Position numbers: made by a program. A stretch of 64,000 nucleotides of DNA. Origin: an uncultured Nitrososphaerota archaeon. GTDB taxonomy: Archaea > Thermoproteota > Nitrososphaeria > Nitrososphaerales > Nitrosopumilaceae. Positions within the stretch are counted from its first letter, which is position 1. Each line of letters starts with the position of its first letter. Location: positions 258,420 to 322,419 of the forward strand of contig CAWGPD010000002.1 in assembly GCA_963824385.1 (NCBI GenBank), given 5' to 3'. Below, in pieces: positions 18,001 through 21,000 of this stretch.

Positions 18001-21000
18001 GCTCAGGATTTCAAACAATTGATAAAATCTTGCAAGGTTCAGATTCTTACAAAAGAGTAATAAACCGAGTAAATTCCATCAAAAACTATCTTGATACAAG
18101 ATTCCAAATTGTTTACGGTAAGAAAATTTGACTTTCATTTAAGGCATCTACTTGTAATTGGAGTTCTTATAATTTCATTTTCCATTTCTGTAATGGTTAG
18201 ATCTCAAGCTGCTGATTATGGTTTCCAATTAAATGAGTTTGATCCATTCTTCAATTACAGGGCAACACAGTACCTATTAGATAATGGACTAAATGCATAT
18301 GTTCATTGGCACGATAATATGAGTTGGTATCCTGAGGGCAGAGATGTTTTTACTAATGCTCAAGTGCCACTACATGTAACAGATGCAGTTCTATACAAAA
18401 TCTTTGGCGGTGGATTAAGTCTCTATGATTTTACAATAATTTTTCCAGTAGTTTTTGGTTCTATGACGGTAATAGTCATATTTGCACTGGTACGTGTTTT
18501 GGGAGGTACTAGTGCAGGACTCTTTGCTTCTCTTTTCTTTGCATTATCACCTGCTATTATAGTCAGAGGAACAATTGGCTGGTTCAAGTCTGAACCTCTT
18601 GGTTTGTTTTATGGGTTATTGGGACTCTATCTATTTCTAAGTGGACTCAAATCAGAAAATAAAAAAATTGCTATAGCCAAGATGGTAGGCGGTGGATTCT
18701 TTCTAGCTGTAGGTTTTGCGTCTTGGGGTGGAATTGAATTCTTTTTACTTCCTTTAGGATTGTTCTTTGTTGCTTTACCTTTCATGCGAAAAGATCACAA
18801 TTTCTTACTCTGGGCAGTTCCATTATTTGTAGCCGTGACTATGCTAGTAGCTGGAGGACTCTTTGCAAGACCTGGTCCAACTTTTGTATTTGGAATAAGA
18901 GGACTTGCGATGATAGGTCCAACCATAATACTAGTCATAATAATTTTCATTCAAAAATATAGTAAAGAACAACACCGTATGCGTAATAGTTTACTTGCTC
19001 TTGCTATTCTAATAATAGTTGGGAGTGTGATCTTGCTTGGGGGAGGAGCTCTTCACGGTGTAAGCTTCCGTTATCTTAATGCATTAGACCCCTTCCTAAC
19101 TTCAGAAGATCCTCTGGTCGATTCAGTTGCAGAACATGCAACTCCTACACTTGCACAGAACTTTAGCTATTTCTCGGTGCTAATGTTGTTTGCAGGTCTT
19201 GGAATATGGCTTATGTTTAGGAAAAAGAACGCCGATACAAAAACATCAGGATTGTCTCTTAGAAATGAGATGATTGTATTTGCTTTAATTGTGGGTATAG
19301 TTGGTGCATATGCTGGTTCTACTTTTACTAGATTGGAATTACTTACAGCAACTTCTGTCATTATACTTTCATCTATAGGTCTAGCTGCACTCACGGCCGA
19401 TATTCTAAAACGAGAAAACAAGTCGGTGAAAATTATAGAATCCCCAAAGAAAGGAAAAACTCAAACAAGAAAGGAAACGACTCAAACAAAAACAACTGGT
19501 GATTTACTTGGAAGAATCTCAAAGATAGCGTTTGTTGCTGTTATAGTGGCATTATTGCTGGTTCCAACCTTGTATCCTGTCAACGGAAACTGGATAACTG
19601 TAACAAAATCTCCACCTACAATTCTAAATGGTGGTTCCAATTTTGCTATTGCCACTAATGACTGGCCAGATGCTCTAAACTGGATGAAAAATAACACTCC
19701 AAAAGATTCCGTAGTTGCTTCATGGTGGGACTATGGATATTGGATACAGACTTTGGGAGAGAGAACTACATTTGTCGATAATGCCACAGTTGACACAAAT
19801 ATCATAGCAAACATTGCAAGAATGCTTCTTGATTCTCCTGATGACGCATGGAATGCATTAAAGAAGATGGGGGCAAACTATGTTCTAGTTTATGTCGTAG
19901 GCCAAAAGTTTGTTTCAAACGGAACTGAGCTTTACGTACTTGGAGGAGGAGGAGATGAAAGCAAGAAACAGTGGTTCATGAAAATAGGAGGCCTTGATTC
20001 ATCACAATTCCTACAAGATGATGCATTTACACCGACTGACTATTTCTGGAAAAATACTCTGCTTGGGCAAATGTTTCCATTCACTCCAGTAACATACTAT
20101 GATCCAAATACTCACAATGAATCACCAGCCTACACTACTGGTTATACAGCAATTTACACAAAGACCATCAAATATCCATCAAATGGAGATGGACCACTAC
20201 GCCTAGCATACATGTCTGCAAGCTTGAATAGAACAGACTCGGGTGTCTTTTCAGGTGTATTGATTTATCAGGTCAATCCTGATTATAAACCTCAGACAGC
20301 TGCTGCATTGTCTACTAGTAATCCACAAGGGAATAGCTCAAGCACAACAATAAAACCCATAACCGCTACAAATAGTAGTGGAGACATTGCAGTTATTGAT
20401 ACAAAGTTTGGAGAGATAAAATTCCAATTATTTGATAAGGTGGCACCACAGACAACGGCTAACTTTATCAATCTAGCCAACTCTGGTTTTTATGATGGAA
20501 CTGTATTTCACAGAATAATTCCAGGCTTTATGATTCAAGGTGGTGATCCAAATACAATAAAAGGCGATAGAAGCACTTGGGGCCTTGGAGATGCAGGACA
20601 TACAGTTCCAGCAGAATTTAGTTCTAGTATGAATTTTACAAAATACATGGTAGGCATGGCACGCAGTTCTGATGTTAACAGTGGAAGCTCTCAATTCTTC
20701 ATTACAGTTGCAGATGCGCCTTGGTTGAATAACCAGTATACTCTATTTGGCCAGGTCATATCTGGTCAAGATGTTGTTGACAGGATAGCACAACTACAGA
20801 CAGATCCTGCTACTAACCAGCCAGTGGTTGCTGATGATGCACGTGTATCAAAAATTAGTATAGAATCATCAAACAGTACGGCAAAATAAAACTAGTTACT
20901 ACTTGTATCTATCTGAAATACGATATCTTGCATACTTGTCATCTGGAGAATATTTTCCTGGATGTACAGTTACAGTCTGGTGTCCACACTTGGGACACTC

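Follow-up and report, generated by a model that had tools for sequence, protein, structure and literature searches.

An ammonia-oxidising archaeon from acid soil carries, in the stretch of 64,000 nucleotides analysed here (the window), a gene in which the oligosaccharyltransferase AglB/STT3 is fused to a cyclophilin-type peptidyl-prolyl isomerase (PPIase), and this fusion is real and conserved, neither a product of chance nor an assembly artefact. We lean towards the reading that AglB has two roles in this cell, glycosylating exported proteins and, at the site where these come out, anchoring the one outer prolyl isomerase that the cell has, with co-location of the two activities being advantageous rather than required. 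Archaea fold proteins outside the membrane without ATP and without an enclosed periplasm, and an outer foldase on the essential glycosylation enzyme of globally important nitrifiers would be a concrete candidate that can be assayed.

Architecture and membrane topology of the fusion protein

Translation of the whole ORF revealed no internal stop codon, and its Pfam domains all score above their cut-offs, bearing out the initial annotation, which had described AglB and a cyclophilin on one uninterrupted frame. STT3 (PF02516) matches residues 46-300 (E 8.2e-26; 91.9 bits against a curated cut-off of 24.5), STT3-PglB_core (PF21436) matches residues 539-597 (E 1.6e-5; 25.9 bits against 23), and Pro_isomerase (PF00160) matches the C-terminal part (E 6.1e-46; 157 bits against 21.7). 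As had also been claimed, the genome, which is 86% complete, holds a single STT3 locus. Its neighbours are ribosomal protein S6e, eIF2 gamma, an MBL-fold hydrolase, eIF2 alpha, cobalamin genes and a geranylgeranyl reductase; no glycosylation gene cluster was found among them, and the genomic context therefore gives no functional hint. A study of ammonia-oxidising archaea (AOA) reports that their proteins are N-glycosylated, that both species examined carry one aglB, and that the AglB protein was detected in two AOA species (PMC12153357 and Table 1 therein).

Features of the fusion gene, with positions counted along the window
Feature	Position	Strand	Details and basis
AglB/STT3 oligosaccharyltransferase-cyclophilin fusion gene	18091..20889	+	932 aa and stop; TTG start
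AglB membrane domain, residues 1-502	18091..19596	+	Hydropathy, AlphaFold2 secondary structure, STT3A alignment, invariant columns
Outer globular catalytic domain of AglB (predicted side), residues 503-735	19597..20295	+	Pfam, STT3A alignment, model
Flexible tether (predicted), residues 736-765	20296..20385	+	pLDDT, composition, omega
Cyclophilin-type PPIase domain, residues 766-925 (Pfam match 769-912)	20386..20865	+	Pfam, pLDDT, Foldseek, omega
C-terminal tail ending SNSTAK, with sequon N928, and stop codon	20866..20889	+	NST kept in 6/6 genus sequences shown

Eukaryotic STT3A is the nearest counterpart of the AglB part. Residues 13-652 align with the human protein (E 1.6e-54), and the best Foldseek matches are 9n9j_I (top), 8b6l_I and 6s7t_A (TM 0.74-0.77 on the target), followed by AglB 7e9s and PglB 6gxc, with E values from 1.9e-25 to 3e-11 to STT3A/B, yeast Stt3, A. 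fulgidus AglB and PglB. The first acidic motif, N-E49-F-D51-P, which belongs to outer loop 1 and supplies the putative catalytic Asp, lies opposite H-E-F-D-P of STT3A, and S345-V-A-E348-H lies opposite its SVSEH (the TIXE/SVSE motif of outer loop 5); E49, D51, S345 and E348 are invariant in an alignment of 57 sequences. WWDYG (W545-G549, nt 19723-19737, within SWWDYGYW at residues 544-551) is found in 57 of the 57, and a D563-N-x-T566 motif lies within the same globular domain. The second acidic motif departs from STT3A: in a high-confidence region of the alignment, K166-S-E168 stands opposite D-N-E, so that the Glu is kept and the first Asp is not, and both K166 and E168 are invariant (57/57). 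In solved structures, this motif has the form D-x-D/E/H and serves as a metal ligand. With its 13 helices and its EFD, SVAEH and WWDYG motifs, the fusion protein resembles STT3A/STT3B, AglB-L of A. fulgidus and PglB (GT-C, GT66); unlike any solved oligosaccharyltransferase (OST) chain, it continues into a C-terminal tether and a cyclophilin.

The 13 helices, placed by a hydropathy scan and the AlphaFold2 model, span residues 17-41, 111-138, 140-152, 167-187, 191-211, 213-232, 236-256, 269-290, 293-318, 354-380, 393-411, 416-439 and 469-494. E49/D51, K166-S-E168 and SVAEH (E348) fall in outer loops of the membrane domain, and by hydropathy and model all AglB catalytic motifs lie on one side, the outer. 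The loop at residues 442-468, directly before the last helix, is assigned to the inside because it carries eight K/R, and neither hydropathy scan nor model reveals a hydrophobic segment after residue 502 of the 932-aa protein. From this topology we infer that the cyclophilin domain lies outside the membrane, as the initial annotation had proposed.

The tether and the isomerase domain

The tether of about 30 residues consists to 72% of S/T/N/Q/P/G, has a pLDDT below 50 at residues 736-762 in the AlphaFold2 model, and carries two N-x-S/T sequons (N748 and N761); it is modelled as disordered and is probably glycosylated. Within the genus its length ranges from 25 to 65 aa, its sequence is variable and its omega is 0.12-0.9, and a tether of 22-92 residues is kept across four fused families. 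An exposed, low-complexity and variable linker, on a cyclophilin that would be exported via AglB without a signal peptide, would also suit a delivery device in which the linker is cut after insertion and soluble cyclophilin is freed into the space under the S-layer. We hold this to be very unlikely, as the tether alignment within the genus shows no conserved motif for cleavage and the outer cyclophilins of related lineages stay membrane-anchored by other means, which suggests that tethering matters.

The cyclophilin domain is complete, as had been stated, covering profile positions 4-152 of 159 with its catalytic pattern intact. The motifs FHRIIPGFMIQGGDP, MARS..SQFF and PWL are present, each opposite its counterpart in PPWD1 and Ppi1, and in the alignment the catalytic pattern resembles that of PPWD1/PPIL1-type cyclophilins; presumably, the Arg, Phe and Gln of FHR..F.IQ, together with SQFF and W/L, are the catalytic and substrate-binding residues (human CypA numbering). 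The model gives the domain a pLDDT of 75-94, Foldseek matches it to 3jb9_d (TM 0.90) and 2a2n_C (TM 0.86), and its best NCBIfam match is the PpiA model (6.6e-30, below that model's cut-off). Within the genus, omega is 0.05-0.11 for the cyclophilin versus 0.04-0.16 for the AglB parts, and purifying selection on the isomerase is thus as strong as on AglB. Judged by its sequence, the fused cyclophilin is predicted to be catalytically competent and to have PPIase activity. It also bears a sequon at N848. Sequon density was considered as a sign of exposure and set aside, the signal being weak and inconsistent: the fused domain has 1.04 sequons per 100 aa and cytoplasmic paralogues 0.58, but the signal-peptide form 0.23.

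The isomerase might instead serve AglB itself, either as a chaperone within the chain or a prolyl switch that acts on the large globular domain, or as a binding or adaptor module without catalysis. Human FKBP11 would set a precedent, since it is described as an adaptor rather than as acting on the nascent chain (PMC12804085), and in one AOA genus (g7) the fused cyclophilin is degenerate, having lost part of the catalytic pattern, yet remains in frame in 2 of 2 genomes. However, 20 of the 21 fused proteins retain that pattern, a linker this long and disordered suggests reach and not a fixed interface, and many AglBs, of about 712 aa, lack the fusion, so we regard a service to AglB as quite improbable.

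Distribution and history of the fusion

Conservation in the genus, another claim of the initial annotation, holds in 5/5 other published genomes, each of which encodes the fusion as a single frame of 923-966 aa. A sample of 121 Nitrosopumilaceae comprised 48 fused, 52 unfused and 5 fragmentary genomes and 16 without a match; of the 105 family genomes with a match, 52 thus lack the fusion, and three genera contain both states. Among named loci 37 of 80 are fused, and all determinable loci of Nitrosopumilus, Nitrosarchaeum, Nitrosopelagicus and Cenarchaeum are unfused. When residues 740-932 were searched against proteins of 512-1631 aa, 1636 matches were obtained at E<=1e-10, and PF00160 and PF02516 occur together in 100 of the best 120 of these, in keeping with the earlier statement that most of the best matches carry both domains. 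That two adjacent genes were joined by an error of sequencing, assembly or frame has next to no probability: a single conserved open frame in all of the other genus genomes, in the 48 family genomes and in the 37 named loci refutes it, as does the joint presence of both Pfam families among the best database matches. Nitrososphaerota clusters with both families numbered only two in the ESM Atlas, and no fusion outside the order appeared among the listed entries (all but ten) of a sample of 401 genomes of the phylum.

In the AglB tree, the fused families f1, f4, f9 and f15 form one clade (support 100) in which unfused f1 sequences are nested (support 99), a topology that fits one gain of the fusion at the base of the ammonia-oxidiser families, followed by losses. 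The cyclophilin-domain tree (154 columns) was dropped as proof of a single fusion, as the fused domains split into three or four groups, each specific to a family, rather than forming one clade, with 5 changes, 3 of them forced by well-supported branches; for a single fusion event we therefore rely on the AglB tree. In f15, domain replacement or gene conversion is likely.

As the initial annotation had noted, the architecture is already visible in databases: fused proteins are named 'peptidylprolyl isomerase' by NCBI and 'dolichyl-diphosphooligosaccharide--protein glycosyltransferase' by JGI, and under the NCBI name, surveys that go by annotation overlook the one oligosaccharyltransferase that these genomes have. 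In agreement with that annotation, our search of the papers accessible to us found no description of an AglB-cyclophilin fusion; work on AglB evolution (Nikolayev et al., 2020) may mention the domain.

Outer cyclophilins and the role of the fusion

The remaining PPIases of the genome, namely cyclophilins of 159 and 139 aa and a broken copy, two FKBPs and one parvulin, lack both signal peptide and anchor. No PPIase but the fused domain is predicted outside, although the genome is 86% complete and may encode a further one that escaped notice. Across the order Nitrososphaerales, an outer cyclophilin tethered to the membrane is the normal condition. Relatives that are not AOA have an unfused AglB and anchor their cyclophilin separately: all 19 cyclophilins of 197-256 aa retrieved from seven such families begin with a basic stretch, one transmembrane helix, which serves as an N-terminal anchor, and a linker rich in Ser/Thr. 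Each of nine forms of 505-696 aa carries a signal peptide and, at the C-terminus, a transmembrane segment; the single one scanned contains a PsbP-like domain, and this arrangement (signal peptide, cyclophilin, PsbP-like domain, C-terminal anchor) also occurs in most Nitrosopumilaceae. In view of these two sets of anchored cyclophilins, the proposal that the fusion is the 'first dedicated extracytoplasmic foldase' of AOA is not borne out in that form.

Both forms belong to the same cyclophilin family as the fused domain, are predicted on the same side and often have a Ser/Thr-rich linker; they differ in having another anchor and no link to AglB. AglB is therefore one anchor out of three, and the coupling to glycosylation can be dispensed with. 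A second anchored outer cyclophilin, of the signal-peptide and PsbP-like type with a C-terminal anchor, is present in every unfused genome that was checked for one, so that co-location with glycosylation is probably a benefit rather than a necessity. Fused and signal-peptide forms also occur side by side in many genera, so simple redundancy does not explain the retention of both.

In the mechanism we favour, the cell's single N-oligosaccharyltransferase, with its C-terminus outside the membrane, would glycosylate unfolded exported proteins, presumably by transfer of a lipid-linked glycan to Asn, and double as a membrane anchor, holding the outer cyclophilin where these proteins emerge. The tethered cyclophilin would then speed prolyl cis-trans isomerisation while S-layer and other surface proteins, its presumed substrates, fold. 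Ancestrally, the order would have tied a cyclophilin to the outside of the membrane through an N-terminal helix with a Ser/Thr linker; AglB would have replaced this earlier anchor in the lineage leading to the ammonia-oxidiser families, and the fusion would later have been lost repeatedly. Fused, unfused and degenerate versions within one family offer a natural comparison for the value of co-location with glycosylation.

A stricter reading makes the coupling obligate, as in the 'two-in-one' enzyme that the initial annotation had proposed to act on proteins leaving the Sec pore: the cyclophilin would act on the same nascent chain that AglB glycosylates, and glycosylation efficiency or site choice would depend on it, whether proline segments near sequons are kept accessible or the chain is folded right after glycan transfer. 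The absence of the fusion from about half of the family genomes with a match, the three mixed genera and the degenerate domain of genus g7 speak against such an obligation, and non-AOA relatives glycosylate with an unfused AglB while anchoring their cyclophilin separately. We therefore find obligate coupling doubtful, although a covalent tether is kept in four families, the cyclophilin domain is under strong selection, and human FKBP11, of FKBP fold, adjoins OST-A at the Sec61 translocon in 9n9j, the top fold match of the AglB part; the authors of that work argue for a buried catalytic site and an adaptor role (PMC12804085). It also seems to us rather unlikely that AOA fuse an isomerase to an STT3A-like OST because glycosylation and prolyl isomerisation are one step at the archaeal translocon. 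If they were, the fusion would be an archaeal covalent counterpart of the eukaryotic PPIase-bearing OST-A translocon, and the cyclophilin would influence sequon choice or S-layer protein folding.

The nearest parallel to the fusion is FKBP11, a membrane-anchored protein of PPIase fold on the exoplasmic side, beside OST-A/Sec61 at the exit of nascent chains, as described in PMC12804085 (Nature 2025; PDB 9n9j). It resembles the fusion in placing a PPIase-fold domain near an STT3-type enzyme on that side, which for the fusion is a prediction. According to the same work, FKBP11 is bound non-covalently, belongs to the FKBP family and is recruited through the ribosome and CCDC134, and its catalytic site is argued to be buried (PMC12804085), whereas in the fusion the link is covalent and the catalytic pattern conserved. 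Given the likeness of the AglB part to STT3A and the FKBP-fold neighbour of human OST-A, the fusion may bear on how translocon-associated folding factors arose.

Bacteria have extracytoplasmic PPIases, among them the lipoprotein parvulin PrsA of Bacillus, lipoprotein cyclophilins of streptococci and periplasmic PpiA of E. coli. Like the tethered ones, the fusion is predicted to keep a PPIase at the outer face of the cytoplasmic membrane for exported proteins, but the bacterial enzymes use a lipid anchor or none, while here the anchor is an oligosaccharyltransferase. The only characterised thaumarchaeal cyclophilin, NmCyp of Nitrosopumilus maritimus, is a stand-alone protein, unlike the fused domain. 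The paper on it makes no mention of oligosaccharyltransferase, STT3, glycosylation or fusion, and reports PPIase activity that is inhibited by cyclosporin A (PMC8756454).

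One chain with an oligosaccharyltransferase and a cyclophilin

The fusion of AglB to a cyclophilin is real, conserved and selected, and its best interpretation is a prolyl isomerase anchored outside by AglB, with its activity predicted. As the initial annotation had proposed, STT3 and cyclophilin domains share one chain: a single open frame yields Pfam matches to STT3 (residues 46-300, 8.2e-26), the STT3/PglB core (539-597, 1.6e-5) and Pro_isomerase (769-912, 6.1e-46, spanning profile positions 4-152 of 159), and NCBIfam adds a PpiA-like match at residues 761-906 and a below-cut-off match to the archaeal STT3 model. 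The window's assembly (1.68 Mb, 5 contigs, 86% complete) holds one STT3 locus, in line with the earlier claim that it is the only one of the genome, and cyclophilin matches in four places. Since all other peptidyl-prolyl isomerases (PPIases) found there are without signal peptide or anchor (see table), the fused domain is the only one in this 86% complete genome predicted to lie outside. The broken cyclophilin copy consists of an 86-aa frame and a second piece, and adjoins a 300-aa signal-peptide protein. Around aglB, the neighbours besides a flavoprotein gene are translation and cobalamin genes, with no glycosylation cluster among them.

Features of the fusion, of the window's genome and of related cyclophilin proteins
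Feature	Location	Strand	Description
AglB-cyclophilin fusion gene	window 18091-20889	+	single open frame, 932 codons, TTG start
Second acidic motif	window 18586-18594; residues 166-168		K166-S-E168
Globular domain	residues 503-735		AlphaFold2 model
Linker stretch	residues 736-762		pLDDT <50
Cyclophilin	residues 766-925		well folded, pLDDT 75-94
Geranylgeranyl reductase-type flavoprotein	window 22530-23759	+	1.6 kb downstream of aglB
Cyclophilin	window's genome		159 aa; no signal peptide or anchor
Truncated cyclophilin copy	G000 (window's genome) C5:5703-6092 (L003)		139 aa; cytoplasmic-type; no signal peptide or anchor
Broken cyclophilin copy	G000 C2:133585-134039 (L005)		cytoplasmic-type; no signal peptide or anchor
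FKBPs	window's genome		144 and 245 aa; no signal peptide or anchor
Parvulin	window's genome		~100 aa; no signal peptide or anchor
Second form, scanned copy	L008:526-2064	-	~510 aa; signal peptide, cyclophilin, PsbP-like domain, C-terminal TM
C-terminal module of second form	L008:529-920	-	~last 130 residues; Gly-Cys-containing motif, then TM helix
Second form, orthologues	L009, L010, L061-L065, L069
N-terminally anchored cyclophilins, non-AOA families	L070-L083, L094-L100		197-256 aa
Sequon-rich cyclophilin proteins, family f15	L066, L067, L068		450-467 aa; N-terminal TM, ~280 residues rich in N-x-S/T sequons, C-terminal cyclophilin

This architecture is plainly visible in databases, and a full-text literature search found no description of it, which agrees with the initial annotation. 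A survey of archaeal PPIases from 2021 counted 122 cyclophilins, some of them multi-domain, and analysed 106; a term search of it gave no mention of an oligosaccharyltransferase (OST) (PMC8530231). A 2025 glycoproteomics study of ammonia-oxidising archaea (AOA) describes a single aglB with WWDYG, its protein detected in both species, and is free of the words isomerase, cyclophilin and PPIase (PMC12153357); oligosaccharyl and cyclophilin do not occur in the Nitrosotalea genome paper (PMC4836417). Among published systems, human FKBP11 comes closest: this membrane FKBP lies next to OST-A at the Sec61 translocon, and its authors argue that its active site is buried and that it works as an adaptor (PMC12804085).

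Predicted topology and conservation of the fused domain

An AlphaFold2 model built from a 57-sequence alignment (mean pLDDT 79.8, pTM 0.67) places 13 long helices in residues 17-494, where a Kyte-Doolittle scan also finds hydrophobic segments, and neither scan nor model contains a hydrophobic segment after residue 502. The orientation of the AglB part would be fixed by this absence together with eight Lys/Arg in loop 442-468, directly before the last helix, and an acidic first outer loop; given helix parity, D51, E168, E348 and WWDYG would all lie on the outer side. In sequence, human STT3A is the best match of residues 13-652 (E 1.6e-54); in fold, STT3A in 9n9j and 8b6l, STT3B in 6s7t and yeast Stt3 rank first, ahead of A. 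fulgidus AglB (7e9s, 2.1e-16) and then PglB (6gxc, 3e-11). No solved OST is known to have its catalytic domain on the cytoplasmic side. Because that domain faces outward and no membrane crossing follows it, we strongly infer that the cyclophilin, too, would sit outside the membrane. The second acidic motif reads K166-S-E168, versus D-N-E in human STT3A, with K166 and E168 invariant in 57/57 aligned AglBs of the order; residue 166, a Lys in all of these, occupies the position of the metal-binding Asp in solved enzymes.

The C-terminal domain alone matches cyclophilin folds (e.g. 3jb9_d, TM 0.90), and its motifs FHRIIPGFMIQGGDP, MARS..SQFF and PWL align with the equivalent residues of PPWD1 and yeast Ppi1. 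Of 21 fused proteins, drawn from four families, 20 keep this catalytic pattern; in the exception, from genus g7, it is degenerate and the branch very long, which would look like relaxed selection. The degenerate pattern was seen at L028 (genome G006); the fused cyclophilin remains in frame there and in G033, also of g7, and each of the two genomes matches at just 44% identity. Across six members of the window's genus and one sister genus, Nei-Gojobori omega within the genus was 0.05-0.11 for the cyclophilin, 0.04-0.16 for the AglB parts and 0.12-0.9 for the linker, which is 25-65 residues long in this comparison. Linkers across families span 22-92 residues; those of f1 and f15 are rich in S/T/N/Q/P and contain sequons, those of f4 and f9 are acidic/Lys/Pro-rich.

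Distribution and history of the fusion

The proposed spread of the fusion across the window's genus was upheld in 5/5 other published genomes (frames of 923-966 aa). Among 121 Nitrosopumilaceae genomes searched with residues 500-932 at 1e-50, 48 are fused in one frame (45 of 118 when the unpublished fused G077, G092 and G093 are left out), 52 have an AglB that stops short of the cyclophilin, another 5 are fragmentary or split, and the remaining 16 gave no match at that threshold; fused members occur in fourteen genera, three of them mixed, and ten genera are unfused only. Across 101 genomes of the order, full-length fusions occur in f1, f4 (8 genomes), f15 (9) and f9 (1), and the AglBs listed for other families end near query residue 730. 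Of 80 loci on named public contigs, 37 carry the fusion; in 35 a stop follows the AglB part, and a contig end truncates the other 8. Labels of the fused loci are Nitrosotalea (5/5), Nitrosotenuis, Nitrosocosmicus (2), Nitrosomirales and, for many, Nitrososphaera or Nitrososphaeraceae, and the unfused include Nitrosopumilus (8/8 determinable), Nitrosarchaeum, Nitrosopelagicus, Cenarchaeum, Marine Group I, Nitrosopolaris and 5 labelled Nitrososphaera. In a 401-genome sample of the phylum, cyclophilins were found in just 25 of the 341 genomes outside the order, in frames of 161-306 aa plus one of 602 aa, and no AglB fusion outside the order was among the matches listed.

Several loci depart from this pattern. 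Three labelled Nitrosopolaris (L134, L137, L139) encode an AglB that has no cyclophilin but ends in 58-75 residues rich in Ser/Thr/Pro, which may be a linker left over after domain loss. Thaumarchaeal-type AglBs (39-56% identity to the query) lie on contigs labelled Chitinophaga, Chitinophagaceae, SAR202 or 'bacterium' (L113, L116, L179, L154), likely through mis-binning. With the full query at 1e-10, 9/10 f9 genomes (genera g35 and g58, completeness 91-99%) gave no AglB match. In the four g5 genomes (family f1) of 0.8-0.9 Mb neither cyclophilin nor AglB C-terminal part was matched; AglB may be divergent or missing in both groups.

In an AglB tree computed by a quick method (35 sequences, 729 columns), f1, f4, f9 and f15 form one clade (support 100) that holds all 21 fused proteins, with 5 unfused f1 proteins deep within it beside fused ones (support 99). 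This topology fits a single gain with one loss or more, and the three mixed genera require several recent losses. A cyclophilin-domain tree (78 rows, 154 columns) did not recover the fused domains as one clade, their grouping following host family; one f15 fused domain is sister to a second cyclophilin protein of the same genome, which suggests domain exchange. For both reasons we do not claim a single origin of the cyclophilin domain itself. In the f15 genome G134, the domain fused to AglB has its nearest relative in the cyclophilin of the same genome's sequon-rich protein, suggesting duplication or gene conversion.

Other predicted outer cyclophilins of the order

Judged by sequence, membrane-tethered cyclophilins predicted to lie outside are normal in the order. 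The 19 cyclophilins of 197-256 aa examined from seven non-AOA families all start with a basic stretch, followed by a single TM helix and a linker rich in Ser/Thr/Asn, the layout that an N-in, C-out signal anchor should have; genome G166 has an anchored and a short copy in tandem. Another predicted outer cyclophilin, the second form, is about 505-545 aa long in Nitrosopumilaceae (696 in one genome), has a signal peptide at its start and a TM helix at its C-terminus, and its PsbP-like domain matches PF18933 (2.7e-6) and PF01789 (8.8e-5) in the one copy scanned, L008. Its C-terminal module recurs in 1 to 18 open frames per genome across the family, mostly 3-10, which suggests a surface-anchoring or sorting domain common to the family. 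Most Nitrosopumilaceae genera have full-length orthologues of the second form, including those without the fusion (g3, g4, g13, g14, g17, g22 and others); many fused genera have both, and the second form is intact in g7. None was found in the window's genus or sister genus g6, and the AglB fusion is the only outer-cyclophilin solution present in the window's genus.

The simplest reading would be that these cells require an outer-face cyclophilin on a tether and that AglB is one of three anchors used, so that proximity to glycosylation would be optional. The suggested coupling of glycosylation to folding stands as regards the fusion itself; an obligate coupling may exist, though the repeated losses weaken the case for it. 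The claim of a first outer foldase for AOA is not supported in that form, as most Nitrosopumilaceae genera encode the predicted outer second form. A protein database search also returned proteins of ~600 aa with PF00160 only (P0059, P0063-P0068, P0070-P0072, P0084, P0096), which score about 290-300 bits against the 193-residue query and probably contain several tandem cyclophilin domains.
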